From Candidatus Woesearchaeota archaeon (GTDB lineage: Archaea > Nanobdellota > Nanobdellia > Woesearchaeales > ARS49), in NCBI GenBank assembly GCA_016203305.1, contig JACQMY010000036.1:1886-65885 (forward strand): a stretch of 64,000 nucleotides of DNA, given 5' to 3'. Made by a program: the position numbers and the translations under genes. Shown one piece after another: positions 29,448 through 64,000 of this stretch (position 1 is the first letter of the stretch; each line of letters opens with the position of its first letter). The notes beneath the pieces are model-generated. The model worked only from the letters and a program-made list of their open reading frames with translations. It was not told where the DNA came from and searched no databases.

Positions 29448-29448
29448 G

Positions 29449-31742: not shown

Positions 31743-31743
31743 A

Positions 31744-44657: not shown

Positions 44658-44738
44658 AGTCCAACCCTTTTGGGCTTGGCCAAGTTCAAACTCCTCACTG
44701 CGCGGCCAGATGTTAGAGCTAACGCTGTGATCATTTGG

Positions 44739-44854
44739 TGGGCCCGAGGAGATTTGAACTCCCGACCACTGGTGGGCTTAGAACGTCCGGGTGTTGTTTT
44801 GTGCCAGACGCGGTCATATAAGACCAGTGCTCTACCAGGCTAAGCTACGGGCCC
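44739..44854 (-). tRNA. tRNA-Ile (anticodon UAU inferred) with a 42-nt intron; CCA encoded (44736-44738)
   Basis: Manual fold: acceptor GGGCCCG/CGGGCCC, D-arm GCTT-AGCCTGGTA-GAGC, anticodon stem CTGGT/ACCAG, loop CTTATA|intron|C, T-arm GGGAG-TTCAAAT-CTCCT, then ACCA. Anticodon depends on the canonical 37/38 intron placement. Confidence 0.6.
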
Positions 44855-47134: not shown

Positions 47135-48055
47135 TCACCCCTTTCTAAACCGGTTCAGCAACGCATACCTCCGATACTTCTGAACACCAGACTTCCAAGC
47201 AGCAAGCTCTGCCTTAACTTTCCGTCCACGCTCACGCAACTGCTCCATACGCTGCCGATATGAAAACCTGCCCATCTTACCAGCAAAATACTCCTCCTGA
47301 ACATGTTGCAAAGTCTTATTCGTTGCATCAATCACCCTTGAAGCCTCACGCTCCTTCTGCAAAGCAAACATCACGCGAAACTCAAGCCAGCCCCAAACTC
47401 CCAAAATAGCCAGGATTGCCAGAACCACAATCACACCGATCGTATGCCTCTTGACAAACTCTGTTATGTTCTTCTTTGCAATATAAGCAAACGTGCGTTC
47501 ACGAACGGCAGCAGACTCTGCCTCTGCCAAATGCATCCTAGTGGCATGCACCAAGACAAAAACTTCATCGTACCGTTCTGACTCAAAAGCATCACGCGCC
47601 TTTTCAAACGTCCGGTCAACCAAAGACATATTTACCGAAACATTCACCTGAACCAACAACGCACCCAAATCCTCCAACGCATCACGAGCGTCAAAAGCAG
47701 AAACCTTTTTCTCAGCAATCCATCGCCCAAGCTCAACCACTCTGGTTAAATTCTGACCGGGCCTCAACCCAGCACTCCGCGCTTGTGCAATCATCCTGAA
47801 ATACTCCTCAGCAAGAGGCTTTCCCTCCACTGATTCGTTCAAGTGGACAGCAGTCTGCAACAACGCGAACTCATCACGGCCAACCAAAGAGTCGTTCATT
47901 CTCAATAACGTATCTTCCAAAGAAGCATATGGAAGACCTGCCTTTTTAACCTGAGCAACATCAACAGTAGCGTTCAAAAACACCTCTTTTGCCTGCTCAA
48001 CAGAAACTGCACAAGCCAAAGAAGACAAAACAATTAACAAAAGCAACCACTTCAT
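47135..48055 (-). CDS. signal-peptide protein with a C-terminal TM helix and basic coiled coil; paralog of the giant protein's C-terminal anchor
   Basis: Signal 'MKWLLLLIVLSSLACA'. TM 'IGVIVVLAILAILGVWGWL' followed by a 'QEEYF'-type coiled coil, mirroring the C-terminus of the 4872-aa protein ('WWALALLAALALYGAL...EAQEAYF'). 4-nt overlap with it. Confidence 0.6.
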   Translation of the reverse strand: MKWLLLLIVLSSLACAVSVEQAKEVFLNATVDVAQVKKAGLPYASLEDTLLRMNDSLVGRDEFALLQTAVHLNESVEGKPLAEEYFRMIAQARSAGLRPGQNLTRVVELGRWIAEKKVSAFDARDALEDLGALLVQVNVSVNMSLVDRTFEKARDAFESERYDEVFVLVHATRMHLAEAESAAVRERTFAYIAKKNITEFVKRHTIGVIVVLAILAILGVWGWLEFRVMFALQKEREASRVIDATNKTLQHVQEEYFAGKMGRFSYRQRMEQLRERGRKVKAELAAWKSGVQKYRRYALLNRFRKG

Positions 48056-51000
48056 TTTCCCACCTCTTTCCTCAACTCTGCAATATGCGCGTCCAGCTCA
48101 GTTACCAAACTCTTGAACACCTGCATTCGAAGCTCATATCTCCTCCTGGAAATAACGTGATGAGCAAAATATGCCAATTGAGCCTCGCGCAAGCCACGCA
48201 TTGCCTCCTGGCGTTCTGCGATGGCCACCTTCAAAGCCTGATCCTTTCGGTACAAACGAGAACGCAACAAGCGCAGCCCAACCATGTCGCCAGTAATTCT
48301 TTCCAAACGCAACTGCAACTGGCCACTTGCACGCTCGAACTCCCTGCCACCAAGCTCGCGCCTGACAAAATAAGCCTCCTGAGCCTCACGCAACAACCGC
48401 TGCGCCTCAACACGCTCGCGCAACAACGCATCCAACCTGTACTTTATGAACGCAAGACGCGCAAGAAGCACTGCTTTAAGAGCGCCATACAAGGCAAGCG
48501 CTGCCAGCAACGCCAAAGCCCACCAGTACCTGCGCGCAACACTCTGCCACGTCCAAGCACGCTCTACAACTCTCAACTGCACGGCGAGCGCTTCATCTGC
48601 CAACGAGATCGCACGATCAAAGTCCTCACGCTCGAATGCCTTAACAGCAAGAGAAAGCAACTTCTCAACAGCAAGAACGTCAAGCCCTTCGTCCTCTGCC
48701 TTGTTTATCTCTGTCCTTACCTTATCCAACAAAGCGCCTGCTTCCAACTCGCGCTCCAACAACAAACGCAACTTCTCAACAACATACGCAGACTCCTTGT
48801 AATCACGTTGAACAAGAGCGTTCCTTAACATTCCGCGCAACACATCAGCCCGAGTAACAGGATAATCCTTTGCCACAACTATTGCATACAAGCTCTCCAC
48901 ATCAGTATAAGCACGCTCAACCTCATCCGATGTAACTTCTCGAATAATCAAACGGACCCGTTTGTACTCAACAACAGTCTTCCTAATCTTGGTTGAAAAC
49001 GGCAAACCATTCCTGAACTCAACACCCTCTGCTTCCAACAGAGAAGTCATTATGAAGGTTATGTTTACTTCTGATTGCTGCTCATAAGCAGGAGCGGCAA
49101 GCTCGATATCGAAAATCCTACTCTGCCCATACGGAATGTTCTCCAATGCTTGCGGGGACCAGTGAATGTATCTTGAGAGGTAGCCGTCAACAGTTAAATC
49201 AACACGTTTCATCAAGGAATTATTGTAAACGTTCGTAACAATCAACGGAAATACTATTCTTGTACCACGCTTAACCTCGATAGTCTCATTTGTCACTAAG
49301 GCAGCTCGCTCAAAAAATGTCTTCTGGAACGTGCCGGGATCTATCCCTCCACCGCCACCGCCCGCACCTCCTGCGCCACCAGCACCACCACCGCTGCCTG
49401 AGCCGCCACCTCCTACAACAAATCCAGGACCGGCAACAACCAATACTTGAGCCGTTGTACCAAGCGTCAAGTTCTGAGAAGAAAGCAGGACGCCAGAATC
49501 ATTAAACCCGTCAGCTGCAGTGCTAACATCCCTGAACCCAAGAACTGCGCCTGATGGAATCTGCACAATAATCGGCAACTCCTCACTAGCATTCGGTTCG
49601 ATCGTTCCAAAGAACGTTGACAAACCACCACCAGTTAGCACCCAATCAACAGGCAAGGTTATATTCAAAGTCACATTAGACGCATTCTTCGTGCCTCTGT
49701 TAGTTACCCTTGCAATAATCGAAATTCCTGACTGGCCACGCTGCACTTGAGACGGAATTACTGAAAAGTCGGCAAACAAGAATGCATCATCCACAGTTGT
49801 AATTGTGAAACTTGTGTTCAACTGCGCAGGAGACGCGTTCAGCGAGCTGCCAACAGTGGTCGCGTTGATAGTGATATTATTAGAGAATACACCAACAGTC
49901 CCAGGAGCAGTCGCGTTAACACCCACCATTCTGACCCCGCCAGGAGAAAGAGTAAAGTTAGTCTCGCTGAAGAAGGTGGCATTAAGAGTAGAGTTCAACA
50001 CAAACGATAAGTTCACATCCCCTGTATTATTAATAGTTATATTGCCCATCGAGATATTGACCCCCATCGGACTTGAGAACACACCCAAATTGGCAGGAGA
50101 ACGCGTCCACGTAGCCTCGAATGAAACATTAAACACTACAATTCCAGACGTGCCATTATTTCCTGCGGTGTCATTCCCAGTCATAAACACGATATAACTC
50201 CCCTCGACTGCAAGGAACGAAGCATTAAACTCACCAGTCAAGACATTGAACGACATCGACACATTTGCAAAAGAAGAACCGTTCACCACTATATGCAACA
50301 CCACAGAGTTCAAGTCAACAGCGGTGAAATTATCAGTAATGTTCGCAGTGAAATTAATCAACACTCCTGGATCCAGCGCGTCAACCGTACTCGGAGAGAA
50401 TAACAAACTCAAGAAGTCAGGAGGAGTACGGTCAACAGCAAATACCCTCGTTTCAGACGTGCTTGTATCAGCCGAAGTATCAGTACATGCAACCGCCCAA
50501 GTATAGTTGCCCTCTGACAGGCCTGAGACAGTAAAGTTTACCACTGAGTTATTCAGAACCGAAGAATTTGTCTGATTAACTGAACCATTCAACAACAATG
50601 AACAATTCAAAGTTGCAGACTCCGCGTCAGTCACGTTGGCAAAAAACAACACTGTCAAGTTTGTCGTGTTCGTCCCATTAGCAGGAGCAATGGAAACAAC
50701 AACAGGGGAGAGACCTGAAATAACCGTTGTCGACTCCGTAGCATTCACCTGCACAAACTCGCCTGACACGCTTACCGCTGACACGTTCACAGAGTTATTC
50801 AAAACAGTGCCGTTTGCAATACCATTGCTAACGTTCACCAAAATAGACAAGTTCACAGACGCGCCAGGAGAAAGATTGCCTAGCGAGAACGTACTATTGC
50901 CCGAAGCAGGGGCAGGAGAAGAACTCACAAACAACACGCCAGACGGATAGGTTTCATTCACCGTCACGTTATATGCAATCTCGCCGTCCAGATTCTGCAC

Positions 51001-54000
51001 TGTGATCGTGTAATTCAATTGCGACCCTTGCAAAACAGGATCAACAGAGTCAGATTTTGAAACAGCCAACGCAACAATACCTGCGATTGTTGTCGTCGTA
51101 CTATTCGTTACCGTAAAGTTCTGCCCTGTTGCGTTGGCAAACGAAACGTTATACGAATTATTCAACAATGAACCGTTGAAGGCAGCAAAGCTCACGTTAA
51201 CAGTAATGTTAATCGTTGTTGAACCTCCAGGCAAAATATTGCCAACGCTAAACGTGCCATTTCCTGAGCTTGGAAGAGGCTGACTGCCATTGAACGTCAC
51301 ATTAACAGGATAACCCTCAACAACAGTAACGTTGTACGCAATGTCATCACCAACATTGTTCACCATAATCTGGTACCGCAATGTTGAATTCACCGGAACA
51401 GGATCAGGACTATCAGACTTTGAAGTAAACACAACAGCGAATCCTGTAACAGTTGTGACCTCTGTATCGCTCGACGACCTATTACCGCCAGACGTGTTCT
51501 GGAATGAAACATTCACAAAATTTGAAAGCAACGTTCCATTTGCCAAGCCATTGCTCACATTAACAGTAATGTTCACAGTTGTAGACGCATTCGGAGACAA
51601 GTTACCTAGAGAAAACGTATTGTTTCCAACAGTTGGAACAGGACTACTGTTGTGGAACACAACACCAGACGGATAAGTTTCTGTCAAAGTAACATTAAAC
51701 GCAACATCATCACCAGTATTGTTAACCAAAATACTATAATTCACCTGCTGGCCTTTTATGACCGGATCGGGTGAATCAACTTTTACAACCGAGATCGTTG
51801 CAGCACCCAAAACAGTAGTCGTTGTGCTATTGCGCACAGTCGTGTTCACCCCAGAAACGTTTGCAAACGTAACGTTATAACTATTATTCAAAACCGAACC
51901 ATTCGCTGCAGCAGCGCTTACGTTCAGGGTAATATTCACTGTAGCGCTCTGACCAGGAGACAAGTTACCAAGCGAGAACGTATTGTTCCCAACGCTTGGA
52001 GCAGGACTGCTGTTGTGGAACGTAACATTCTCAGGATAATTCTCAACAACAGTCACATTATATGCTATCTCATCACCAAGGTTGCTTACCACAATGGAAT
52101 ACTGCAACTGCTCGCCTCTTGCGACCGGATCAGGAGCATCAGACTTGCTCGTAAATACAACAGGGAAACCAACAACAGTAGTCTGTTCAGTATCACTCGC
52201 GCTCTGATTTAGCCCAAACGTATTCTGGAAAGAGGCATTTGCAGTATTGTTCAACAACGTTCCATTTGCCAAGCCATTGCTCACATTAACAGTAATGTTG
52301 ACCGTTGTTGAAGCATTCGGAGACAAGTTACCTAGCGAAAACGTATTGTTTCCAACAGTTGGAACAGGACTACTGTTGTGGAACACAACACCCGACGGGT
52401 ATGAATCCAAAAACGTCAAGTTGAACGCAGTATCATCACCAGTATTGTTGATTAAGATACTATAATTCAACTGCTGACCCTTAACAACAGGATCAGGACT
52501 ATCGGTCTTAATCGTAACAACAACCGGCGCGCCCAGCACACTCGTAAGAGTGCTATTCGTAACCGTAGCGTTCTGACCAGAAGCATTCGCAAAAGTCACA
52601 TTATAACTATTGTTCAACACCGTACCATTCACCAATCCAAGGCTCACGTTCACAGTAATATTCACCGTTGTTGACATGTTTGGCGAAAGATTGCCTACTG
52701 AGAACGTGCCGTTTCCTGAGCTTGCAACAGGACTACTACTATGGAACAAGACACCAGAAGGATAACTCTCAACAACAGTCACGTTGAACGCAGTGGAGTT
52801 GCCAGTGTTGTTGATTAAGATGCTATAGTTCAACTGCTGACCTTTCACAACAGGATCAGGACTATCGGTCTTTGAAGTCGAGATAGAAGGCGTAACAAAT
52901 AGTGCAGTGAAGTTCGTAACCTCAGAGCTATTGACTCTGCCACTAGTATCATTCGCTATAATTGTCACATTGTACAAACCAGTGAGCGGGATGAAGAAAG
53001 ATGCATTATACTTACTTGTGCCAGGAACAATCACCAACACAACCTGCTGTATTGTTCCATTAGGCAAGGTCACGTTGGCAAGCACGGTATCAATAACGCC
53101 ATCATCAGTCACGTTGGCAGCAAGCTCAATTGTCTCACCAATGTTAAACGTGCTATTCACAACAGGCCTCAAGTCAAACACCAATGGAGTCACCAAGTCA
53201 CAAGTCCCATCCCACGAACTGCCATCAGTGAAGAAGCCTTTAAACACGCCCTGGCCAGAACTATTCGTGTATGCAACCACAAACCTGCCAGGACAGATAG
53301 AGTTATTTGTAACTGAAACACGACCTGCAACATCCAACAATCTGAACGTACTATTAGGCTGAGACTCGACTGTTATCTCGTTGCTTATGTTGGAACCACT
53401 CGCATTAAAAGTAGCTGCCTTGATCGCACCAGCATTCTCATCCCACCACGCGACAACAGCCACATCCTCAGAGCTTGTCTCATTCATCTTCACAGTACCC
53501 GCCGAAATTCGCGAAATGACTCCTGCATTCCCATCGATAGATGCCGGAGCGAACAGCACCACGTTATCGCTCGTCCTGCCAGCAATGTAAACGTTCTGAT
53601 CAACAGAATCGTAGAATGCCATGAAGAAAGAATTGTTCACTAATGAGCTATTCCCAAGCGAGGTCATCGCAACCTGCCCAGTTTCGCCGACATCAGCATC
53701 TATGTCAACCTGGCCTGTCAACAATGCCCCCGTCTCACTTTGAATGCTGAAAGTAGCATCGTTTGACAAGTCATCAAACCAGAAGTACGCCCACCGTGTA
53801 CTATTCGCACCAGCGCATCCAACCAAATTCTCATTAGGAGCAGCAGGAGCCATGTTGCCATCAACCGCTAACTCCCCAACAGACTGAGTTCCATTATTGA
53901 AGAACGTCAAGAATGACGCGTCTGCGTTCCCATCATTCGCATAACACGTCACAGACTGGTTAACGATAGAGGCAAGCTTCACATCAGTATTCAAACCAAT

Positions 54001-57000
54001 CCCTGCACGCACAACAGTCGGAGAAGTTGTGTTCGTTCCATTTATCAGGAACAGCCCCTGGGTCAAGTCATCAGATGGCCCATCAACCCACGAAATCAAA
54101 AAGTGCGTGCTATTGACCAAAGCAACATCAACCCGCGAAACATTATCCGCAGAAGTATCAACATCAGTCGTGTTCACAATCACGGTTCCATTCGTGTTCA
54201 TAATTCTAAATGAGACATCAGATTCATTGTTGTCAACAAACGCTATCACAAATGCGGTATTGTTAACAGGCGCAATAGCGACATCAACAGCAGAGCTTGT
54301 TTCAAGGAAGCCAGGGTCGTTCGGCGTGATAGTTATTGTATAATTCTGTCCAGGAGAGATGTTCATTATTTCAGACCAGTTACCCAAACACTCCTGACCT
54401 GAGAAGTTATAATTCTTACACGTGTACAAAAGATAGTCTCCAATCGCAGTAACCACTACGCTTGCATTGGTGAAATTAATCCCAGTCGGATCGATAGCGT
54501 ACTCGACAAAGGAGCCATTCGGCGTCTGGCTCTCTGAGAACGGATCATCAATGCGCAAAATACTCAAAATGCTGCTTGAATTGTGCAACAGCATGCTGAT
54601 AGATTTCACACGCGACCCGCTAATATTCGCAGAAAGGTTCAACATGCCAGAAACATTACTCGTCACGGACAAAGTGTAGTTAACAAATCCACCCGTACGG
54701 TTGACTATGTCGATCACATTCAAGCTCTGCCTTATGAACGTCAGCGTGAAAGAGTTGTTCACATTATTCAAAGTATCATTCGCAAATATTCTGATCGTAT
54801 AATTACCACGCTGCGTCAAGTTTGAGAATGACAAATTATACAAAGAGCCAGTAACGTTTGTCGAAAAGTTCTGCAAAGTGCCATCTGGATAGGTAATCTG
54901 CACCATAACCGTGCCAACACCCAGCCAATCAGTCACGTTCGCCGTGATGTTAATAGTATCGTTCAACAAGAACGAACCGCCAGCAACAGGACTCAACACT
55001 GAAACATTCGGAGGATTAACCTTAACGACAACTTGCCGCGTCTCAGTATTGTTGATATTGCCAGCCAAGTCAAACACTGTTGCATTAAAGAAGTACAAAC
55101 CGTCCGCAAGACCTGTGAAGTTCACAAAGTTAGGAGAACTGGAAGTATTACTGCTGTTAATCTCTCCGCCAGTCGAGTTGAACAAGCGAATTGTGGTGTT
55201 CGCAAAGTTCACGTCTGTTCCGGTCAAATTAACCAGGATATTCCGCCTCGCAATTGTGGAACCATTCGCATCAGTCGGAGAAACAAATTCAGCAGCCGGC
55301 CTCAAAGTATCAATCGTAATCGTCCTGTTCCCAGTCTGATTCGAATTACTACCTATATCGCTCACACTGCCAAAGTACTGGTACACGCCATCCGCAAGAC
55401 CTGTGAAGTTATTGAAGAACGACATGTTCAAAGGAGTGTAAGTAATATTTGACTGGTCAATAGTTGCAGTAACTGCAATCACCGGAGCATACTCGATGGT
55501 ATTCGATCCTATAAGCAAGAAGTTTGAAGCATTCTCAAACGTCTTCGGAGAAACATCAGAAGTTCCAATTGTCCCAACATTGTTCCCGTTAACAAGCACG
55601 TTCAAAGTACCGGAAATTACGGAAAAAGTGGCTGTCAAATTAGCCCTTGAAGCATTATCGGCAATAGTAATGACATGGCTCTGTGAGGTAAGACTTGCGA
55701 CAAAAGTTATGTCAGTGCCATTCGCTTCTGACCTGAGAGGAGTTGTAAAGTTCACACGAGAGCCATTAAGCTCGATAAGCGCAACACTCATGTTCGCTTC
55801 GTCAACAGAAATGTTCACGGGCACAAACGTATTGCCTGTAAACGTGTTGTCAGCAGGAGTTGGACCTACAAATCTAATCTGTGGAACAATGGTATCTAGC
55901 CCTACATTGAATGACGTCACCACTGTATTATTGATGTTGCCTTCAGTATCGTTCGCCCTGAAAGTAATATTATACTGCCCGTTCAAGTTCGGCGTTATGA
56001 AAGACCCATTATATTTATCCGTACCTGGAACTCTGGTCAAGTTAACCAAGAACGTCGTACCATTAGGGAAAGTAATGTTCGCAGTCACGTTATCAACAGC
56101 AATATTATCTGTAACGTTTGCAGAGATCTCGATCACGATGCCTGGAGCGAATGCCGTTCCTTCAAACGGACGCACATCAAACACCAAAGGCTGAATAGTG
56201 TCTGCAATAACTGTTGTGTTCTGAGAAGCATTCTGAGTAAAGTTAACACCAGACAGGTTGGCAAAAGTCACGTTAACAGTGTTATTGATGACCGTGCCAT
56301 TCGCCAGACCACGGCCAATATTCAATGTGATGTTAATTGTCGTGAAAGTTCCATTCGTCAGGTTTCCAAGCAAGAACGTATTGTTGCCCGAGCTTGGAAC
56401 AGGTTGGGAGCCATTGAATACTACGCTCACAGGATAATCCTCAAAAACAGTAATGTTATACGCGATCTCATCACCAGTATTGTTCACAACAATCTGATAC
56501 CGCAACGTAGCACCACGCACAACAGGATCAGGACTATCAGACTTATTTACAGAAACTTGAGCAAAGCCAAGAACTGTTGTTAGCTCTGAATCAGACACTG
56601 TGACATTCTGACCAGAAGCATTAGCAAAAGTAGCAGAAACACTATTGTTCAAAACAGAGCCGTTTGTCAAGCCATTACTCACATTAACAGTAATGTTAAT
56701 CGTGGTTGACTGGCCAGGCAACAAAGTGCTAAAGCCAAACGTGTTATTGCCGCTACTTGGAGCAGGCGTACTTGAATGAAACACAACACCAGATGGATAG
56801 CTCTCAACAACAGTCACATTATAAGCGATCTCACCACCCGTATTATTCACAAATATCGAATAGTTCAACTGCTGACCCTTTATGACGGGGTCAGGATTAT
56901 CATTCTTAATCGTGATAACAATAGGAGTACCCTGCACATTCGTAGTAGTACTGTTAGTCACGGTCGTGTTAACACCTGAAACGTTTGCGAACGTCGCATT

Positions 57001-60000
57001 AAACGAATTATTCAAAACAGAACCATTAGCCAAAGCACCACTAACATTAACAGTAATGTTAACAGTCGCACTCTGACCAGCAGACAAGTTGCCCAATGAG
57101 AACGTGTTGTTGCCAGAAGATGGTGAAGGTTGGCTTCCATTAAATACGACGTTTGAAGGATAACTATCAACAACAGTCACGTTATACGCAAATTCATCAC
57201 CCAAGTTTATCACAGTAATCTGATACGACAAAACAGAACCATTCAACACAGGATCAGGACTATCACTCTTAGAAGCGAACACAACAGGGAAACCAAGCAC
57301 AGTAGTAAGCTCAGAATCAACAACAGAACTATTCTGACCAGAACTATTCGCAAACGTAGCATTAACAACATTAGTCAAAACAGTACCATTTGCCAAACCA
57401 TTGCTAACGTTCACAGTGATGTTAATCGTCGTGGAAGAACCATTTGAGATATTGCCAAGCAAGAACGTGCCATTTCCTGAGCTTGCAACAGGACTGCTAT
57501 TATGGAACACCACGCCAGCAGGATAAGTTTCTACTACAGTAACGTTAAACGCAGTATCGTCACCAGTATTGTTGATTAAGATACTATAATTCAACTGCTG
57601 ACCTTTAACAACAGGATCAGGACTATCGCTCTTAATGTTCACAATAACAGGACTACCCAAAACAGCAGTTGTAGTACTATTGGTCACGGTCGTGTTAACA
57701 CCAGACAAGTTCGCAAAAGTAGCATTAAACGAGTTATTCAACACAGTACTATTTGTAAGAGCAGAACTCACATTAACAGTAATGTTCACGGTTGTTGATT
57801 GACCAGGAGACAAGTTGCCAAGACTAAACGTGTTATTGCCACTTGTTGGAACAGGTTGGGAGCCATTGAATACTACGCTCACAGGATAACCATCAACAAC
57901 ACTCACATTATATGCAAACTCATCACCCAAGTTCACCACAGTAATCTGATACCGCAAAGTTGTGCCCTTAGGCACAGGATCAGGACTATCACTCTTAGAA
58001 GCGAACACAACAGGGAAACCAAGCACAGTAGTAAGCTCAGAATCAGAAGCAGAACCATTCTGACCAGAACTATTCGCAAATGTAGCATTAACCGTGTTCG
58101 TCAAAACAGTACCATTAGACAGACCATTACTCACGTTCACAGTAATATTAACAGTTGTAGATGCGTTCGGAGACAAATTACCCAAACTAAACGTGCCGTT
58201 TCCTGAAATTGGAACAGGGCCACTACTATGGAAAACAACACCAGCAGGATAAGTTTCCACCAAGGTAACGTTAAACGCAGTATCGTCACCAGTATTGTTG
58301 ATTAAGATACTATAATTCAACTGCTGACCCTTAACAACAGGATCAGGACTATCGCTCTTCACAGACACCACCACAGGAGAACCAAGCACAGTAGTCAAAG
58401 TACTATTAGAAACTGTTGAGTTCTGACCGGCCAGACTTGCAAAAGTAACATTATAACTATTGTTCAACACGCTATTGTTAGTCAACCCAGCACTCACGTT
58501 CACAGTAATATTAACGGTTGTAGAAACGCCAGGCAACAAATTGCCAAGACTAAACGTGCCATTGCCTGAAGAAGGCGAAGGTTGTGAGCCATTAAATATA
58601 ACGTTTGCAGGATAGCCGTCAACAACAGTCACATTATACGCAATCTCTGTTCCAACGTTATTCACAACAATCTGGTACCGCAAAGTTGTACCCTTAGGCA
58701 CAGGATCAGGACTATCAGACTTGCTCGTGAACACCAAAGCAGCACCCTGCACAGTCGTAATAGTACTATTAGGCACGGTCGTGTTAACACCTGAAATGTT
58801 GGCAAAAGTCGCATTAAACGAATTATTCAAAACAGAACCATTCGCCAAAGCGGCACTCACGTTCACTGTGATATTGATCGTTGTAGATTGGCCAGGCAAC
58901 AAATTGCCAAGACTAAACGTGCCATTGCCAGAAGCAGGCGAAGGTTGTGAGCCATTAAATATAACGTTTGCAGGATAGCCGTCAACAACAGTCACATTAT
59001 ACGCAATCTCATCACCAGTGTTGAATACTGTGATCTGATAACGCAACGTCGACCCATTCAACACAGGATCAGGAGTATCCGCCTTGTCCGCAAACACAAC
59101 AGGGAAACCAAGCACAGTAGTCAAGATGCTTGTGTTAACAGACTGGTTGCCAGTCGAGTTCGAATAGTTCACAACAGCAGTATTGTTCAACAACGAGCCG
59201 TTTGACGCGCTCACGTTCACAGTAATGTTAACAAGGAAAGATCGACCAGCAGAAAGATTACCAATCGTGAACGTGTTATTACCCGAACTTGGAGCAGGCT
59301 GTGAACCGTTAAATACAACGTTTGTCGGATAAGTTTCGCGCACAGTAACATTCTCCGCAACTATCGTACCAGCATTTGACACGTTAATCTGATACCGCAG
59401 CGTTTGGCCTCTCACAACAGGATCAGGACTGTCAGACTTGGCAACAGTCACATTAGTAAACAACGCACCACTAATTGTAAAGGACCCTGAAACAGAGCTT
59501 GACGCACCAGACGAGTCAAGCGCGAACACTGTAAAGTTATACTGACCATTCTGAGTCGTATTAGTGAAGTTCAACTCGTACAACCCACTTGTTGTTGTGC
59601 CGCTCACTAAAGTCAAGTTGAACGACACAATACTACCGTTCGGCAAAGTCACGCTCACGTTAACCCTGCTGATGTTAATGTTATCCGTCGCGTTCACGGT
59701 AAAGTTCACAGTTCCATTTGTCGTGAAAATCGAACCATTTGCTGGAGAAACAACCAGGATGCTCGGAGCGGGATCAAAGCTGCCCCAGGCAAACATTGCA
59801 CACTGAGTCTGACCGTTCAAGCAATCGAGAGCTGTTTCAATAGTGGAAACATTCGTCCAGTTTGAACCATTCCACCTCGCGCTCGCCAAATTCTCTACAA
59901 AGCTAAAACCAAGCATCATAATCTCATTCGTAACAGGATGCGGGTAGAACTCAAGCGTTTCCACGCTATTCCCGCCACCAATCAACGAGCCAGTGAGCGG

Positions 60001-62670
60001 ACAGTTTATCATGCTCGAATGCGACCATGACGAGCTATTGTAACTGCATACCCGGGCATCATTATCAGCACCAGGCAAACCAGGTATATACCCGAATAAT
60101 CCATTGTTACTCTGGCTTTCGAACGCACAATCCAAACTCACCGCGCCCGCACCATTTGCCTCAATCGCAGCATCCTCGGCAGGAGGAACAGGAGAAGTCT
60201 CAACAGCACTGCCATTCCACATCCTGAAGTTGCCATCACCCGTAGTATCCTGGCTCACGAAACCAATACGATCAGATTTTTTATCGCCACAAAGACGCAT
60301 CCCATTCGGAGCACCGCTGTCCAAAGTGAAGAACACCTGATCAGCACTCCAAGACTTTGCAGAATAGTTAAACGTCCTGAACGCATAAGTCGTTGTAGAG
60401 TTTGCGTACACTACCAAGCCATCCTTGCTTGAACCCTCCCAAATAAAGTCAAACAATTGCTCGGCAATATCGTTAACGCTACCAGTAATGTTCATCTGAG
60501 TAGCATTATCAAACCCTGTACCGTTCCACATCACAGCAAAAATGTCAAGGTTCGCATCCTCCAATAAAACCATGACATCATCACTACCATTGCGGCCCAC
60601 AGTCTTAACCCAATGAACAGCAGCAGTAACATTCGTATTCAAAGCAAACTCAGAACTCCAACCAGTGCCATTATACAACCTATACTTAACCTGTCCATTC
60701 GCAACAATTGAATCTTCATAAACAATTAAGGCGTCTCCTGATATTTGCTCGAAATCAAGATCAAACCCTCTGCGCCCAGTATTCGGGTTGTCAAACGCCA
60801 ACGCCTGAAAGTCAGACCAGTTAGACTCGTACACCTGAACAGACGTGTTTGTATTAATGTCAAGAGTCCCCATCACAAACTTGTCAAACCTAGGTCCCGG
60901 ACGCAAAACCAGCCATTCAATATCCGCACCAACCGAGTTCGCATCAGTTTGTTCCTGCATAAATGACTGGTTTGACAAATTCCAGAACCGGTAACGCGGA
61001 GCAGGAACTGAAGCTTCAGCATAAGCAGCCAAGCCATCAGAACCAGCAGCAGTAACTGCAGCATCATGAATGAAGTCAAACTCAATAAATCCAGACAGTG
61101 CGTTCTCTGCAAACGTATTAGCATTACAATCAGGCTCTGTTGCATCACAATTATCATTCGTAATATTGCGCACAAGCTTGACCACTTTGAGGTCGAAAAC
61201 ATCTGTGCCAAATGGAACACCACCTAGTTTCACATATTGAACTTCAGCAATACCAGCAATACCAGAACGGCCAACTATCACAGAAGTATTCGCCACGTAA
61301 ATTTCAACATAGCTAACTGTTCCATTATCCCTTGCCAAAAAGTCGATCACGCTGCCATTCGTCAAGTTACGCTCGAAAGTTACTCTAACTTTATGGCCTG
61401 CTGGAATCGGCTCAGACCACACACCATCAATAGCGTTCACCTGTGAGAAGACATCGCTCACGAACGAACCGTTCTTGTCAAGATGAATGGCAGCAGTAGC
61501 ATTAATCTCGCCAAAGCCAGGGTCTTCCGGAGTAAGCTCAAACGAATACTCTCTACCCGGAATCAACCCAGACTTGAAAACAGACCAGCTACCAGCGCAA
61601 GATCTTGAATCAAAGTCCCACTGCTTACACTTCAACAAAGCAGTACCCTGAGCAACAACAGTAACAGTGGCTGTTGAGAAGTTCACCCCAACAGGATCAA
61701 TCGCGTACATCTGCACGAACCTGCCGGACTCAGGAGTATCATCAACACGCAAAACCTCACTTCCAGAAAGGTTAACATCCTCGAACTCAATCGAACTTAC
61801 AGGACCTGAATCCAAGTCAACCAAGACGTCAACACTTCTTGGAACCTCAACAGCAGAGCTTGTTCCCACACCCATTGCCTTCTGCGCCAATAACCTGCCA
61901 GTGCCACGCTCAAGGAATTTCACACTGCCCGAAACACCCCTGCCAGAAGCATCACGCACAACAAACACTGCAGAGACATTGGCTAATGCATTGACCTGTG
62001 CAGACCCATTCAAAACCAATTCTACAGACTCATTAACCAGGATCGAGTCGTTAATCGCCACCAGCTCTCCGCGCAATGAATTGTTCACAGTATTGTTAAC
62101 AGGCGGCTCAACTGGTACAACAGGCGAAGCGTTCTGCAACTGGTCAACCATTGCATCCAATGCATCCTCAACATACGGGGCAACAGCAGGAACATCCACA
62201 GTTTCGACAACCTCGACAGTAGGCGGTAGGTTGTAGATAGTAGGTAGTAGGTAGTAGGTGGTTGGCGGAACTGAATAGTTTGTAGTGGGCAGCGTGTAGT
62301 TTGTGGTTTGTGGCACGTCATCTGGTTGTTCAGACTCATTGACCGCATCAAGCGGTTCAACAGAATAGTTTGTAACAGGCACTGCATCAGAATCGTTCAA
62401 TAGCCCGACAGGCTGTTCAACTATGCCTGTGTTTTCTGTCGTGAATTCCACAACTAACTCTGACAAATTGTCTGGAGTTTGCACGACTTCCAAGACACGG
62501 CCAGGCACGTCAGGAACTGAAGCGTTCGACAAAGCAGAACCTAGCACGCTCAGTGCGTCGTCTACAAGAGGAGCAGAAGCTGGAACGTCAACAGTCTCTA
62601 TCACAGTCACGTTCTCTGCAGCAGCAGAAAGAACAAGTGCAAGTACCAACAAGAGAGTGAAGCGTTTCAT
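48052..62670 (-). CDS. giant (4872 aa) secreted surface protein with about 30 DUF11-type repeat domains, Gly-rich linker and C-terminal TM/coiled-coil anchor
   Basis: Signal peptide 'MKRFTLLLVLALVLSAAA'. Recurring '(K/S)SDSPDPV..G..L.Y.I.V.N.G' DUF11/TIGR01451-type repeats, N-glycosylation-sequon rich. 'GGGGSGSGGGAGGAGGAGGGGGG' linker. Uninterrupted 14.6-kb ORF. Confidence 0.85.
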   Translation of the reverse strand: MKRFTLLLVLALVLSAAAENVTVIETVDVPASAPLVDDALSVLGSALSNASVPDVPGRVLEVVQTPDNLSELVVEFTTENTGIVEQPVGLLNDSDAVPVTNYSVEPLDAVNESEQPDDVPQTTNYTLPTTNYSVPPTTYYLLPTIYNLPPTVEVVETVDVPAVAPYVEDALDAMVDQLQNASPVVPVEPPVNNTVNNSLRGELVAINDSILVNESVELVLNGSAQVNALANVSAVFVVRDASGRGVSGSVKFLERGTGRLLAQKAMGVGTSSAVEVPRSVDVLVDLDSGPVSSIEFEDVNLSGSEVLRVDDTPESGRFVQMYAIDPVGVNFSTATVTVVAQGTALLKCKQWDFDSRSCAGSWSVFKSGLIPGREYSFELTPEDPGFGEINATAAIHLDKNGSFVSDVFSQVNAIDGVWSEPIPAGHKVRVTFERNLTNGSVIDFLARDNGTVSYVEIYVANTSVIVGRSGIAGIAEVQYVKLGGVPFGTDVFDLKVVKLVRNITNDNCDATEPDCNANTFAENALSGFIEFDFIHDAAVTAAGSDGLAAYAEASVPAPRYRFWNLSNQSFMQEQTDANSVGADIEWLVLRPGPRFDKFVMGTLDINTNTSVQVYESNWSDFQALAFDNPNTGRRGFDLDFEQISGDALIVYEDSIVANGQVKYRLYNGTGWSSEFALNTNVTAAVHWVKTVGRNGSDDVMVLLEDANLDIFAVMWNGTGFDNATQMNITGSVNDIAEQLFDFIWEGSSKDGLVVYANSTTTYAFRTFNYSAKSWSADQVFFTLDSGAPNGMRLCGDKKSDRIGFVSQDTTGDGNFRMWNGSAVETSPVPPAEDAAIEANGAGAVSLDCAFESQSNNGLFGYIPGLPGADNDARVCSYNSSSWSHSSMINCPLTGSLIGGGNSVETLEFYPHPVTNEIMMLGFSFVENLASARWNGSNWTNVSTIETALDCLNGQTQCAMFAWGSFDPAPSILVVSPANGSIFTTNGTVNFTVNATDNINISRVNVSVTLPNGSIVSFNLTLVSGTTTSGLYELNFTNTTQNGQYNFTVFALDSSGASSSVSGSFTISGALFTNVTVAKSDSPDPVVRGQTLRYQINVSNAGTIVAENVTVRETYPTNVVFNGSQPAPSSGNNTFTIGNLSAGRSFLVNITVNVSASNGSLLNNTAVVNYSNSTGNQSVNTSILTTVLGFPVVFADKADTPDPVLNGSTLRYQITVFNTGDEIAYNVTVVDGYPANVIFNGSQPSPASGNGTFSLGNLLPGQSTTINITVNVSAALANGSVLNNSFNATFANISGVNTTVPNSTITTVQGAALVFTSKSDSPDPVPKGTTLRYQIVVNNVGTEIAYNVTVVDGYPANVIFNGSQPSPSSGNGTFSLGNLLPGVSTTVNITVNVSAGLTNNSVLNNSYNVTFASLAGQNSTVSNSTLTTVLGSPVVVSVKSDSPDPVVKGQQLNYSILINNTGDDTAFNVTLVETYPAGVVFHSSGPVPISGNGTFSLGNLSPNASTTVNITVNVSNGLSNGTVLTNTVNATFANSSGQNGSASDSELTTVLGFPVVFASKSDSPDPVPKGTTLRYQITVVNLGDEFAYNVSVVDGYPVSVVFNGSQPVPTSGNNTFSLGNLSPGQSTTVNITVNVSSALTNSTVLNNSFNATFANLSGVNTTVTNSTTTAVLGSPVIVNIKSDSPDPVVKGQQLNYSILINNTGDDTAFNVTVVETYPAGVVFHNSSPVASSGNGTFLLGNISNGSSTTINITVNVSNGLANGTVLTNVVNATFANSSGQNSSVVDSELTTVLGFPVVFASKSDSPDPVLNGSVLSYQITVINLGDEFAYNVTVVDSYPSNVVFNGSQPSPSSGNNTFSLGNLSAGQSATVNITVNVSGALANGSVLNNSFNATFANVSGVNTTVTNSTTTNVQGTPIVITIKNDNPDPVIKGQQLNYSIFVNNTGGEIAYNVTVVESYPSGVVFHSSTPAPSSGNNTFGFSTLLPGQSTTINITVNVSNGLTNGSVLNNSVSATFANASGQNVTVSDSELTTVLGFAQVSVNKSDSPDPVVRGATLRYQIVVNNTGDEIAYNITVFEDYPVSVVFNGSQPVPSSGNNTFLLGNLTNGTFTTINITLNIGRGLANGTVINNTVNVTFANLSGVNFTQNASQNTTVIADTIQPLVFDVRPFEGTAFAPGIVIEISANVTDNIAVDNVTANITFPNGTTFLVNLTRVPGTDKYNGSFITPNLNGQYNITFRANDTEGNINNTVVTSFNVGLDTIVPQIRFVGPTPADNTFTGNTFVPVNISVDEANMSVALIELNGSRVNFTTPLRSEANGTDITFVASLTSQSHVITIADNASRANLTATFSVISGTLNVLVNGNNVGTIGTSDVSPKTFENASNFLLIGSNTIEYAPVIAVTATIDQSNITYTPLNMSFFNNFTGLADGVYQYFGSVSDIGSNSNQTGNRTITIDTLRPAAEFVSPTDANGSTIARRNILVNLTGTDVNFANTTIRLFNSTGGEINSSNTSSSPNFVNFTGLADGLYFFNATVFDLAGNINNTETRQVVVKVNPPNVSVLSPVAGGSFLLNDTINITANVTDWLGVGTVMVQITYPDGTLQNFSTNVTGSLYNLSFSNLTQRGNYTIRIFANDTLNNVNNSFTLTFIRQSLNVIDIVNRTGGFVNYTLSVTSNVSGMLNLSANISGSRVKSISMLLHNSSSILSILRIDDPFSESQTPNGSFVEYAIDPTGINFTNASVVVTAIGDYLLYTCKNYNFSGQECLGNWSEIMNISPGQNYTITITPNDPGFLETSSAVDVAIAPVNNTAFVIAFVDNNESDVSFRIMNTNGTVIVNTTDVDTSADNVSRVDVALVNSTHFLISWVDGPSDDLTQGLFLINGTNTTSPTVVRAGIGLNTDVKLASIVNQSVTCYANDGNADASFLTFFNNGTQSVGELAVDGNMAPAAPNENLVGCAGANSTRWAYFWFDDLSNDATFSIQSETGALLTGQVDIDADVGETGQVAMTSLGNSSLVNNSFFMAFYDSVDQNVYIAGRTSDNVVLFAPASIDGNAGVISRISAGTVKMNETSSEDVAVVAWWDENAGAIKAATFNASGSNISNEITVESQPNSTFRLLDVAGRVSVTNNSICPGRFVVAYTNSSGQGVFKGFFTDGSSWDGTCDLVTPLVFDLRPVVNSTFNIGETIELAANVTDDGVIDTVLANVTLPNGTIQQVVLVIVPGTSKYNASFFIPLTGLYNVTIIANDTSGRVNSSEVTNFTALFVTPSISTSKTDSPDPVVKGQQLNYSILINNTGNSTAFNVTVVESYPSGVLFHSSSPVASSGNGTFSVGNLSPNMSTTVNITVNVSLGLVNGTVLNNSYNVTFANASGQNATVTNSTLTSVLGAPVVVTIKTDSPDPVVKGQQLNYSILINNTGDDTAFNLTFLDSYPSGVVFHNSSPVPTVGNNTFSLGNLSPNASTTVNITVNVSNGLANGTLLNNTANASFQNTFGLNQSASDTEQTTVVGFPVVFTSKSDAPDPVARGEQLQYSIVVSNLGDEIAYNVTVVENYPENVTFHNSSPAPSVGNNTFSLGNLSPGQSATVNITLNVSAAAANGSVLNNSYNVTFANVSGVNTTVRNSTTTTVLGAATISVVKVDSPDPVIKGQQVNYSILVNNTGDDVAFNVTLTETYPSGVVFHNSSPVPTVGNNTFSLGNLSPNASTTVNITVNVSNGLANGTLLSNFVNVSFQNTSGGNRSSSDTEVTTVTGFAVVFTSKSDSPDPVPVNSTLRYQIMVNNVGDDIAYNVTVVEGYPVNVTFNGSQPLPSSGNGTFSVGNILPGGSTTINITVNVSFAAFNGSLLNNSYNVSFANATGQNFTVTNSTTTTIAGIVALAVSKSDSVDPVLQGSQLNYTITVQNLDGEIAYNVTVNETYPSGVLFVSSSPAPASGNSTFSLGNLSPGASVNLSILVNVSNGIANGTVLNNSVNVSAVSVSGEFVQVNATESTTVISGLSPVVVSIAPANGTNTTNLTVLFFANVTDAESATLNCSLLLNGSVNQTNSSVLNNSVVNFTVSGLSEGNYTWAVACTDTSADTSTSETRVFAVDRTPPDFLSLLFSPSTVDALDPGVLINFTANITDNFTAVDLNSVVLHIVVNGSSFANVSMSFNVLTGEFNASFLAVEGSYIVFMTGNDTAGNNGTSGIVVFNVSFEATWTRSPANLGVFSSPMGVNISMGNITINNTGDVNLSFVLNSTLNATFFSETNFTLSPGGVRMVGVNATAPGTVGVFSNNITINATTVGSSLNASPAQLNTSFTITTVDDAFLFADFSVIPSQVQRGQSGISIIARVTNRGTKNASNVTLNITLPVDWVLTGGGLSTFFGTIEPNASEELPIIVQIPSGAVLGFRDVSTAADGFNDSGVLLSSQNLTLGTTAQVLVVAGPGFVVGGGGSGSGGGAGGAGGAGGGGGGIDPGTFQKTFFERAALVTNETIEVKRGTRIVFPLIVTNVYNNSLMKRVDLTVDGYLSRYIHWSPQALENIPYGQSRIFDIELAAPAYEQQSEVNITFIMTSLLEAEGVEFRNGLPFSTKIRKTVVEYKRVRLIIREVTSDEVERAYTDVESLYAIVVAKDYPVTRADVLRGMLRNALVQRDYKESAYVVEKLRLLLERELEAGALLDKVRTEINKAEDEGLDVLAVEKLLSLAVKAFEREDFDRAISLADEALAVQLRVVERAWTWQSVARRYWWALALLAALALYGALKAVLLARLAFIKYRLDALLRERVEAQRLLREAQEAYFVRRELGGREFERASGQLQLRLERITGDMVGLRLLRSRLYRKDQALKVAIAERQEAMRGLREAQLAYFAHHVISRRRYELRMQVFKSLVTELDAHIAELRKEVGK

Positions 62671-62831
62671 TTTTTCTTCACCCTCTTCAGCGTCAACTTG
62701 CCACTCTCAAAACCAAAATCGATCTCATCCTTATCGTTCCACTCGAGAATTTTCACTAAAGTCTTAGGAATCGTTAGAATATACTGATCTTTAGGAGTCC
62801 TCTGTAATTTGCGTGTGATTCCCTTCGTCAC
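62667..62831 (-). CDS. small AbrB/SpoVT-family (swapped-hairpin) DNA-binding protein, GTG start, stop overlapping the giant-gene start
   Basis: Hand-translated: (V/M)TKGITRKLQRTPKDQYILTIPKTLVKILEWNDKDEIDFGFESGKLTLKRVKKK. 'ILTIPKTLVKIL' resembles the AbrB/MazE 'vtIPkei' motif. ATGA overlap with the giant ORF. Confidence 0.4.
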   Translation of the reverse strand: MTKGITRKLQRTPKDQYILTIPKTLVKILEWNDKDEIDFGFESGKLTLKRVKKK

Positions 62832-62956
62832 TTATTACTTCCTCTTTTCCTTTGAAATTCATATGAAAATGGAGCGCCTATTTAAAAGCTTTGTGGTGTG
62901 GTAAAAGGTATACTGGTACAATTGAGGAGTACATTCTTGACATATGATAAGTAGTA

Positions 62957-63001
62957 TGATGAATAATATGATGAATAATATGAAGATTCATATGAATCTA
63001 A
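62957..63001 (+). promoter_or_regulatory. tandem 12-mer plus palindrome upstream of the AbrB-like/giant-protein operon (candidate operator)
   Basis: TATGATGAATAA x2 (62957-62980) followed by the palindrome AGATTCATATGAATCT (62986-63001). TTTTAAATA box about 55 nt upstream of the GTG on the minus strand. Confidence 0.4.
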
Positions 63002-63099
63002 GAGCTGAAAATACTTCACAAGTGCCAGCAGGCATCAGAAAAAAACAACCACACAGCCAACGATATCTTTTTAAACGACTCGCCTTCCTCACAGACAAC

Positions 63100-63203
63100 G
63101 CCGCGGTAGTATAGTCCGGTCAAGTATTCGGCCCTTTCGAGGCAGCCAGCAAGTGCTGGTCCAAAGCTAGGCTGAGACACGGGTTCAAATCCCGTCCGCG
63201 GCA
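63100..63203 (+). tRNA. tRNA-Glu (anticodon UUC) with an intron of about 29 nt
   Basis: Manual fold: acceptor GCCGCGG/CCGCGGC, anticodon stem CGGCC/GGCTG, loop CTTTCG|intron with ccagca-ag-tgctgg hairpin|A, T-arm ACGGG-TTCAAAT-CCCGT. T-run follows. Confidence 0.65.
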
Positions 63204-63353
63204 CTTTTTTTAGTGCGTAGCACTTGCTGGTTAAGTTAAAAGGGGATTTGAACAAGCCTCCTCGCGATGCTATGCTCGCATCGGAGGTTCTCCAAATGCT
63301 TGCCTACGCTCGCATTTGCAGAAACTTTCCGTCCGCTACGCTCCCGGAAAGTA

Positions 63354-63372
63354 ATCCCGTCCGCGGCACTTT
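63354..63372 (+). repeat. second copy of the tRNA-Glu 3' end (19-bp exact repeat)
   Basis: ATCCCGTCCGCGGCACTTT is identical to 63189-63207 and 63467-63485. Followed by a T-run. Confidence 0.75.
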
Positions 63373-63466
63373 CTTTTTTTTGCAATGACGAACCTAATTT
63401 CTACCCCAAAAACGCACACCCTGGGGATCTCCAAAGCCGCCGCTCCCCTGGAACCCCTGCGGCATC

Positions 63467-63485
63467 ATCCCGTCCGCGGCACTTT
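63467..63485 (+). repeat. third copy of the tRNA-Glu 3' end (19-bp exact repeat)
   Basis: ATCCCGTCCGCGGCACTTT followed by a T-run. Confidence 0.75.
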
Positions 63486-63489
63486 TTTC

Positions 63490-63729
63490 TTAATGCGCAC
63501 GCTTAACCGCGAAATAATAAACGCTTGCGCCGATAAAGCCCAAGAAAACAAGCACGAGAATCCACGCGATGCGCTCGCTGTCAGCCAGCTGTTTTCTTTT
63601 TGCACAATCAATAATCATCAAAATCCAGAAAACTGTAAGTGCTATTACTGCGGCAAACATCAAAAACATGAAGAGTATCATGCCAACAACAAACAAGCCG
63701 TCTCCACCATTCATCATTGCTTGAAACAT
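63490..63729 (-). CDS. small two-TM membrane protein (PLD-nuclease N-terminal-like)
   Basis: 'IAWILVLVFLGFIGASVYYFAVKR' resembles the PLDc_N small-membrane-protein family. Confidence 0.35.
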   Translation of the reverse strand: MFQAMMNGGDGLFVVGMILFMFLMFAAVIALTVFWILMIIDCAKRKQLADSERIAWILVLVFLGFIGASVYYFAVKRAH

Positions 63730-63808: not shown

Positions 63809-64000
63809 ATGGCTTACCAAAGAGGAAGTCTCCAGCGCCACGAACAGCTCAAACACCAAATTCTATCCAACCCGGAGATCGTCGGCATAGCAAAAAAGGA
63901 CATCATCAGCGTGGAAACAGAGTATCCACTAACAAAACGAAGACGAACAGTATTTGCACGACCAGACATCCACATAACATACCGTTGCAAACAAGGAATC
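63809..64000 (+). CDS. hypothetical protein, N-terminal fragment (runs off the window)
   Basis: ATG at 63809 with a TTTATAAAA box about 45 nt upstream; open to the window end. Confidence 0.3.
   Translation, partial: MAYQRGSLQRHEQLKHQILSNPEIVGIAKKDIISVETEYPLTKRRRTVFARPDIHITYRCKQGI

Follow-up and report, generated by a model that had tools for sequence, protein, structure and literature searches.

The stretch of DNA considered here, called the window throughout, comprises 64,000 nucleotides (nt) of a contig of Candidatus Woesearchaeota archaeon (assembly GCA_016203305.1, contig JACQMY010000036.1) and carries close to its right end a gene for tRNA-Glu(UUC) that is followed by two additional copies of its own 3' end. 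We think that this locus consists of two miniature non-coding cassettes stacked behind tRNA-Glu(UUC), which would have been inserted successively by site-specific recombination at the T-loop/3' end of the gene, and we give this reading a probability of about 0.45. Partial tRNA copies are normally read as the scars of large integrated viruses or plasmids, and at this locus they are accompanied by a conserved, structured and gene-free unit. Because inserts of this type recur behind tRNA genes in related genomes, they would belong to a family of small insertion elements instead of being leftover virus DNA.

The repeat that defines the array, ATCCCGTCCGCGGCACTTT, occurs three times in the window, always on the plus strand, at 63189–63207, 63354–63372 and 63467–63485. 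This threefold occurrence had been reported in the original prediction, an earlier reading of the bare letters of the window, and it is exact and specific: the window holds no additional match with up to three mismatches, and 100 dinucleotide shuffles gave none. Copies 1 and 2 have 20 nt in common (AATCCC...CTTT, 63188–63207 and 63353–63372). As had been proposed, copy 1 belongs to tRNA-Glu(UUC) and forms its 3' end. The gene lies at 63100–63203 on the plus strand, scores 50.3 bits with the Rfam tRNA model and has an intron of about 29 nt at the canonical position; it was missed by ARAGORN with default settings and found only when introns were allowed. The first repeat copy, R1 (63188–63207, plus strand), takes in more than the stems and the discriminator, as it comprises the last 2–3 nt of the T-loop, the 3' strands of the T-stem and of the acceptor, the discriminator A and the 4-nt trailer CTTT. 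The promoter of the gene, a TATA-like box TTTTTAAA (63068–63075, plus strand) located 24 nt 5' of the first tRNA nucleotide, and its terminator, a T7 run at 63205–63211 (plus strand), were both read from the sequence, and the same motif stands at equal distance from the tRNA in relatives. Oligo-T is a transcription terminator in archaea, and the T-run that had been noticed after every copy is indeed there: T7 at 63205–63211, TTTCTTTTTTTT at 63370–63381 and T6 at 63483–63488. The array is not an assembly artefact, since an independently assembled contig of 994 bp (L001, Logan SRR12113384), which extends 167 bases past the window end, matches it base for base. Copies 1 and 3 have similar flanks (TTAGTGCG and TTAATGCG); this resemblance is probably due to chance, because a third T-rich look-alike sits within a gene.

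The spacers between the repeat copies measure 146 and 94 bp, hold no genes or open reading frames (ORFs), and are named unit 2 and unit 3. Unit 2 starts with a spacer segment (63213–63230, plus strand) in which a mini-hairpin, GTGC-GTA-GCAC (63213–63223), overlaps an inverted copy of the tRNA intron hairpin (63219–63230). The latter, AGCACTTGCTGG, had been recognised from the letters alone and is a perfect 12-nt complement of the intron segment 63146–63157, within an inverted repeat with 26-nt arms that are 77% complementary. Read on the minus strand, the same spacer is made up of GTTCAAATCC joined to CCTTTTAACTTAACCAGCAAGTGCT, that is, a T-loop piece and a sequence resembling the anticodon loop and intron start, which share CCC; the resemblance extends over 18 of 26 positions (63132–63157 against 63219–63244), is in permuted order and is seen in this window only. 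The spacer is followed by an inverted copy of the T-arm, GGGATTTGAAC (63243–63253, plus strand), the exact reverse complement (11/11) of tRNA positions 63183–63193, which has a counterpart in every related unit. Three hairpins come next (63257–63352, plus strand, with limits 63257–63287, 63293–63318 and 63324–63352), the first of which is the bulged hairpin CCTC..CGATGC / GCATCG..GAGG that had also been pointed out before. They are enclosed by a closing stem, GGGAUU (63243–48) with AAUCCC (63353–58), and the unit ends in AATCCCGTCCGCGGCACTTT and a T-run. The predicted RNA fold of unit 2 is a multi-branch junction with a minimum free energy (MFE) of −46.1 kcal/mol and a z-score of −3.0 (−3.5 as single-stranded DNA, ssDNA), in which the tail GUCCGCGGCA is left single-stranded. 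The second repeat copy, R2 (63353–63372), and its T-run (63370–63381) occupy 63353–63381 on the plus strand. Unit 3 (63382–63466, plus strand) is degenerate and has no stable fold (z = +0.29), and it retains an inverted-T-arm-like sequence, GGGGATCTCC (63423–63432), and a CTGGAAC motif (63448–63454). The array is closed by R3 (63467–63485) and its T6 run, together 63467–63488 on the plus strand.

Units of this kind are not confined to tRNA-Glu. A tRNA-Ile gene of the window (anticodon read as TAT; 44736–44854, minus strand; 58.4 bits with Rfam, also found by ARAGORN with introns allowed), with a 42-nt intron and an encoded CCA, is followed by a unit at 44627–44694 on the minus strand that has a fold z of −3.6. 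It comprises an inverted T-arm copy, GGAGTTTGAACT (44683–44694), an apex hairpin (44661–44679), a 25-nt direct copy of the tRNA from the T-arm to the 3' end (44633–44657) and a T6 run (44627–44632). Beyond it there is a partial second unit (44564–44595, minus strand) with an exact inverted T-arm copy, GGAGATTTGAACT (44583–44595), and the hairpin CCAGCC-AGCA-GGCTGG (44564–44579), after which no direct copy follows. Related tRNA-Glu loci were collected from species-representative genomes scanned for the tRNA 3' end, from a metagenome scan with GTAATCCCRTCCGCGGCA, which returned mostly chance bacterial matches and three true loci, and from contigs with homologues of the PLDc_N gene that neighbours the array; about 15 lineages of Woesearchaeota/Nanoarchaeota were found among the matches listed. 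Taking the window and the related contigs together, a direct copy of the gene's own 3' end is present up to 500 nt downstream in 12 of 33 distinct tRNA contexts and upstream in none of the 33. By isotype, a copy is found in 10 of 17 contexts of Glu, one of three of Ile and one of four of Ala, with none in nine contexts of Val, Gly, Met and Ser; the units concerned lie behind Glu(UUC), Glu(CUC) (L041), Ile (window) and Ala (L039). Away from tRNAs, BLAST found no copies of the units in the window or in the related loci, where only the tRNA-derived parts recur, and the T-loop-like 9-mers outside tRNAs correspond to the units and to four chance matches in genes.

Most related tRNA-Glu loci carry one or two units of a single architecture: behind the tRNA come a terminator, which is either a plain T-run or a GC hairpin with a T-run after it, then a spacer, the inverted T-arm, the hairpins, the direct copy and again a terminator. 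The terminator hairpins have loops of the GNRA or UUCG type, as in GGGGC-GCAA-GCCCC. The inverted copy, which begins about 30–40 nt past the tRNA end, reads GGATTYGAAC(C) in the relatives and is thus the inverse of the cognate T-arm; it is followed by a short apex loop, and often after this by GGTTCR, a direct copy of the 5' strand of the T-stem and of the beginning of the T-loop. Toward their 3' side, the Glu units have two or more hairpins and then (T)AATCCC... through the discriminator, with the terminator behind. The number of hairpins per unit ranges from one to five and the size of the units from 69 to 250 bp. In some relatives, the direct copy takes in the whole T-arm (L040, CACGGGTTCA...AATCCCGTCCGCGGCA; L073, CCGGGTTCA...). 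Both the direct and the inverted copies match the local tRNA. This holds for the T-loop, where A57 alternates with G57 (L052, L086) and the G57 lineages carry GGGATTCGAACC, and for the acceptor, where CCGCGGC alternates with CCGGGGC (L073, L083) and the lineages with GCCTCGG/CCGGGGC carry AATCCCGGCCGGGGCA, and it extends to the Ile and Ala loci. Two other origins of the inverted T-loop were discarded. A minus-strand or permuted tRNA would have acceptor and T-stem partners, which neither sequence reading nor ARAGORN found, and a relic of convergent tRNAs, such as the tRNA-Ile converging on tRNA-Glu in L037/L038, is rejected because what the inverted copy follows is the tRNA of its own unit, down to the A57/G57 variant.

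The structure of the hairpins that accompany the copies is maintained. Eleven of the 12 units that were folded have z of −2 or lower, the exception being window unit 3; ten have z between −3 and −6, and the decayed third unit of L073 has −2.2. RNAalifold on eight aligned Glu units gave a closing stem and three helices, in which 93.4% of the pair cells hold standard pairs against 84.1% in shuffles (none of 500 shuffles reached the observed value), and nine pairs are changed on both sides against 4.1 expected (again 0/500). Control alignments that were slid had 27–51% paired. Covariation thus supports a predicted four-way junction as the common fold of the units. The spacers are not random remnants, since they make up a conserved structured family, always with an inverted cognate T-arm, which is found behind tRNA-Ile and tRNA-Ala as well.

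Such a fold could mean that the units work as RNA, either as co-transcribed 3' trailers or as small RNAs with a tRNA-like tail at the 3' end. They might then serve as back-up terminators or processing modules, as decoys of enzymes with an affinity for tRNA 3' ends, or as partners pairing with the T-loop or the 5' acceptor strand. Besides the covarying junction and the z-scores of −3 to −6, this explanation draws on the T-run, or GC hairpin and T-run, that follows every copy, and on the G-U pairs present in the tRNA-sense strand of the units. The functional tRNA-Ile copy has no T-run of its own, and therefore transcription should continue from it into the unit. On the other hand, the TTTTTAAA box seen before tRNAs is found in no unit, and it is missing before window units 2 and 3; a T7 run separates the tRNA of the window from unit 2; and no unit holds a 5' strand complementary to the 3' tail. 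At permissive thresholds, the window end and six related loci matched no Rfam family other than tRNAs and rRNAs. Many close relatives do without units at their tRNA-Glu loci (L037, L039, L042, L071, L085 and L087), and the distal units decay. Moreover, the folded species, RNA or DNA, is not told by the data, because ssDNA and the opposite strand fold equally well. We consider a function as RNA unlikely on this balance.

The comparison with related genomes, which the original prediction had proposed, shows units gained or lost between close relatives. L038 has, with respect to its close relative L037, an extra unit of 69 nt that is cleanly bounded by a 13-nt repeat, GTCCGCGGCACTT, and that contains 24 nt without tRNA origin; the two units of L043 have no counterpart in its relative L071. 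The units are also mosaic. Those of L040 and L086 are 97% identical over 32 nt, and those of L040 and L083 86% identical over 51 nt despite their differing tRNA acceptor stems, while L086 mixes a hairpin of the L089 type with one of the L040 type. A 14-mer is common to the Ala unit of L039 and the Glu(CUC) unit of L041. Within arrays, the distal units are usually more decayed: the two window units have z of −3.0 (unit 2) and +0.29 (unit 3), copy 3 of L043 has three mismatches, and the third unit of L089 is nearly erased. The earlier proposal of successive integrations at one tRNA gains from these data as regards the presence or absence of units with repeat boundaries (L037/L038), the start of the repeat in the T-loop and the distal decay.

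A separate observation concerns L054, where a 55-nt insertion of two hairpins sits exactly at the 5' end of tRNA-Glu (GCC/GCC on its two sides; about 7705–7760, minus strand), between the promoter and the tRNA. It is missing from L040, whose sequence around the tRNA gene is near-identical, and the second hairpin of the insertion has a UUU triloop, as does the junction-proximal hairpin of many units. In the same pair of contigs, the PLDc_N gene is strongly diverged and its flanks are almost identical.

Turnover of this sort could also come about locally and without a dedicated recombinase, if the palindromic T-arm gave rise to fold-back priming, template switching or slippage while the DNA is replicated or a break repaired. 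Inverted and direct copies of the tRNA 3' part would be created in this way, and gene conversion would keep them identical to the tRNA. Direct and inverted copies that always match the local tRNA, a repeat length past the tRNA end that varies, arrays that grow and shrink like tandem repeats and the lack of an adjacent recombinase all agree with this idea. It leaves the non-tRNA sequence of the units to be explained, such as the 24 nt in the L038 unit, and also hairpin modules that are homologous and mosaic across genomes and tRNA isotypes, and a constant architecture with 30–40-nt spacing. Decayed tRNA copies are not detectable in the hairpins: when these were considered as older decayed copies of tRNA 3' ends or their inverses, the local alignments were no better than shuffles. 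We therefore rate a recombinase-free origin as rather improbable.

A further reading is in essence that of the original prediction. The repeats could be the attachment-site scars (attL/attR) of gene-carrying viruses or plasmids deleted down to about 100–250 bp, in which case the spacers would be non-functional debris. Partial tRNA copies left by the integration of elements of 9–23 kb are documented in archaea (PMC9897764, PMC3293823), and the position of the repeat fits att sites of the T-loop type. The window itself has a tyrosine integrase beside tRNA-Gly, with a possible 12-nt attR 11.7 kb away. This protein of 419 aa (24136–25395, minus strand; PF00589 and a zinc ribbon), the sole recombinase among the 40 window ORFs scanned, is encoded directly downstream of tRNA-Gly(GCC), with which it lies in 24136–25538, and is 38 kb from the array. 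The candidate attR, CGGACGGCGCAT, is a copy of the tRNA-Gly 3' end at 13744–13755 (minus strand), on the same strand as the integrase, and as a match taken alone it is close to chance expectation. The interval between them may be an integrated island; in it lie genes of the HEPN and nucleotidyltransferase families, genes for a tetratricopeptide-repeat (TPR) protein and a radical-SAM protein, and several ORFs without a family. This genome is thus provided with integrases that target tRNA genes, none of which adjoins an array.

The units themselves speak against deleted large elements. Their sizes are tight (69–250 bp), and no gene-bearing intermediate between a miniature unit and a full element appeared in the roughly 15 lineages. 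The ordered architecture recurs in diverged lineages and behind three isotypes, and the hairpin stems covary rather than decay. Sequence matches to viruses, phages or plasmids are also missing: neither GenBank phages nor PLSDB plasmids matched the array in a BLAST search, and a scan of viral contigs with the 15-nt repeat gave 35 matches, almost all chance occurrences in GC-rich phage or bacterial tRNAs; an archaeal attP was not among them. The viral contigs were also scanned with hairpin motifs specific to the units and with the 3' ends of tRNA-Ile and of the variant tRNA-Glu, which yielded either nothing or one unrelated attP-like site of a GC-rich phage. The idea of cargo lying unseen to the right of the array does not hold either, as the array ends at 63488, where the T-run of R3 abuts the stop codon (63490) of a gene for a small membrane protein of the PLDc_N family (63490–63729, minus strand; Pfam PF13396). 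This gene, which bounds the array, is a conserved neighbour of tRNA-Glu in many relatives (L040, L052, L055 and L071–L089), and the gene beyond it is likewise conserved near tRNA-Glu in relatives. Scars of large elements are accordingly, in our opinion, a doubtful source of the units.

We thus return to small cassettes inserted as such, a process that accounts for the position of the repeats, the stacking, the mostly distal decay, the repeat-bounded insertions and deletions, and the mosaic spread of modules. Each cassette would enter within the block of the tRNA gene that runs from the T-loop to the 3' end. A cassette consists of a copy of the tRNA from T-loop nt 58 to the discriminator with a few trailer bases and a terminator, the spacer, the inverted T-arm, the hairpins and the next 3'-end copy. 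The insertion would rebuild an intact tRNA and push the earlier 3' end outward, so that the 19–20-nt repeats would be the recombination junctions, equivalent to attL/attR, and the array would grow next to the tRNA and decay at its far end. In the cassette, the inverted T-arm could pair with the displaced direct copy to form a T-arm-like duplex at the base of the four-way junction; this duplex may be the recombination site of the cassette, with the inverted copy as its symmetric half. The repeats, the architecture of the units, their recurrence at three isotypes, the covariation, the presence or absence in relatives and the mosaicism are observations; what we infer is the mover of the cassettes, a recombinase that would act in trans, the place of the crossover and the youth of the proximal unit. 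The tyrosine integrase beside tRNA-Gly is a candidate for such an enzyme.

Several results weigh against cassette insertion. No recombinase gene lies in or beside any array, in the window or in the roughly 15 related lineages, and the link between the tRNA-Gly integrase and the units is putative. Neither a circular or free form of the units nor a full-size, gene-carrying element with their ends turned up in the collections of viruses, phages and plasmids. In most Glu units, among them those of L052, L086, L040, L083 and L073, two hairpins are placed exactly between T-loop positions 57 and 58 of the displaced copy, with zero bases lost or duplicated (GGTTCR and AATCCC on either side), a placement that a plain attR would not show. 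By eye and by MFE folding, this two-hairpin insert is predicted to sit at a perfectly stacked junction whose opposite strand has no bulge; the bulge-helix-bulge at the exon-intron junctions of archaeal tRNAs consists of two 3-nt bulges with a 4-bp helix between them. The direct repeat reaches a variable 4–12 nt beyond the tRNA end, and the equal folding of RNA and ssDNA, on either strand, favours a DNA site no more than a transcript. The comparison of L071 with L043 does not tell which copy is the original one, and L073, with a mismatched copy 2 and a perfect copy 3, is an exception to the distal decay.

A more specific form of cassette insertion supposes that the att site of the integrated units is formed only when a strand folds, and that a recombinase in trans inserts them at tRNA T-loops, which would make up a tRNA-anchored, integron-like system of DPANN archaea. 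The inverted T-arm would then pair with the direct copy into a duplex mimicking the T-arm of the tRNA gene, comparable to the attC of integrons or the attP of CTX-phi. Two-hairpin modules would, in such a system, also land at T-loop position 57/58 and at tRNA 5' ends and thereby be a live source of tRNA gene disruption, giving non-canonical introns or split genes. We regard this elaboration as quite unlikely in its entirety.

The surroundings of the array offer some further observations. The gene at 63810–64000, beyond PLDc_N and continuing in L001, is homologous to a 130-aa protein that adjoins tRNA-Glu in L043; a nuclease-like motif of the PD-(D/E)xK kind (PD...E-I-K) can be seen by eye, and no sequence match was found in Pfam or the PDB. 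The block formed by the promoter, tRNA-Glu and the units (63065–63489) is inverted relative to its conserved neighbours when compared with L043, L052, L055 and L071. These neighbours are PLDc_N on one side and an AbrB/MazE-like gene and a giant protein on the other. The tRNA-Glu gene is also inverted relative to PLDc_N in the L073–L079 lineage, and no inverted repeats were seen at the breakpoints of the inverted block. The giant protein is encoded by a single ORF of 4872 aa (48052–62670, minus strand) that starts like a signal peptide, contains many near-identical internal repeats and has a coiled, membrane-anchor-like region at its C-terminus, and it is preceded by the AbrB/MazE-like gene of 54 aa (62667–62831, minus strand); the pair follows tRNA-Glu in many relatives. 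Around the promoter region of the AbrB/MazE-like gene, a palindrome, ATTCATATGAA, occurs twice (62857–62867 and 62986–62996), and relatives have similar boxes, TTCATATGA, in the corresponding position. Between the two copies, an AT-rich stretch with ATGATGA repeats and CTGA gives only weak Rfam matches to C/D-box small nucleolar RNAs (E about 7); the palindromes are more likely operator sites than parts of a C/D small RNA. Farther away, a full chemotaxis set is located at 26464–35237, with CheD, a CheC-like protein, CheA, CheB, CheW, a methyl-accepting protein and a PAS/HAMP sensor.

The family of units is described neither in Rfam nor in the papers that could be searched. If the units are mobile cassettes, they would be among the smallest known site-specific insertion elements and would provide a system for studying how small a functional att site can be. 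They would also provide one for the insertions in the T-loop and at the ends of DPANN tRNA genes, which bears on the debate about the origin of non-canonical introns and split tRNAs. If they are RNAs instead, they would represent an undescribed family linked to tRNA genes. In practice, the units may explain spurious att sites and tRNA fragments given by tRNA and island finders in such genomes.

Several known systems resemble the array in part. An array of clustered regularly interspaced short palindromic repeats (CRISPR), defined by repeats of about 23–50 nt, spacers of similar length and cas genes, is rejected: the repeat measures 19–20 nt, the spacers 146 and 94 nt, and no Cas domains occur among the window ORFs scanned. 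Repetitive extragenic palindromes (REP/REPIN) and miniature inverted-repeat transposable elements (MITEs) share with the units short non-coding hairpin modules that vary between strains, such as the 55-nt insertion of L054; the units, for their part, are not dispersed and have neither terminal inverted repeats nor a fixed target duplication, and this assignment was dropped. In Nanoarchaeum equitans, split tRNAs have stand-alone DNA for the 3' half of a tRNA with a base-pairing leader, and the units are likewise pieces of DPANN DNA with only the 3' part of a tRNA behind a sequence capable of pairing. They are nevertheless not split-tRNA halves: a complete tRNA-Glu adjoins them, there is no TTTTTAAA box, the leader pairs with its own T-arm and the fragment starts inside the T-loop. 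Casposons (PMC6614799, PMC4779613) duplicate 14–15 bp of a tRNA 3' end and can form tandem arrays at one tRNA, and in both respects the units are like them. We rejected a casposon since there are no terminal inverted repeats at the unit ends and no Cas1 among the 40 window ORFs, and the repeat length varies by lineage.

The phage CTX-phi and other elements that use Xer recombinases have an attP that is a folded single strand, in which inverse target-like copies around a spacer rebuild the target duplex, and they form tandem arrays by successive integration. The two inversely oriented target-like copies of our units could fold into a target-mimicking duplex in the same manner. The target differs, being a tRNA T-arm instead of dif, and the units are non-coding and 100-fold smaller.

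Integrons take up new cassettes at the proximal attI site, whereas growth of the tRNA arrays at the proximal end is only what we infer. Integrase-free arrays of attC sites (CALINs) exist in DPANN archaea (PMC9668308), and with these and with integron cassettes the arrays have in common small tandem units, a palindrome conserved in structure rather than in sequence and, often, no adjacent integrase (PMC9668308). The units differ from them in having no ORFs, a palindrome that is a T-arm copy and a tRNA gene as anchor in place of attI. The attC core sites, RYYYAAC (R'') and GTTRRRY (R'), are not fitted by TTTGAAC/TTCGAAC and GTTCAAA/GTTCGAA, which deviate at positions 1 and 4 of R'' and at positions 4 and 7 of R'. 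No IntI was identified, the window integrase located 38 kb away not having been checked for the IntI-specific domain.

The nearest known kind is the attL/attR tRNA fragment that tyrosine-integrase elements leave behind (PMC9897764, PMC3293823). Williams reportedly defined in 2002 sublocation classes of tRNA att sites, a T-loop class included. Unlike such elements, the units measure only 69–250 bp, have neither genes nor an integrase, and combine an inverted T-arm with covarying hairpins in a recurrent architecture. What they share with them is a repeat made of the 3' part of the tRNA from the T-loop onward, an intact tRNA on one side with a partial copy on the opposite side, stacking in tandem, and presence or absence between relatives.

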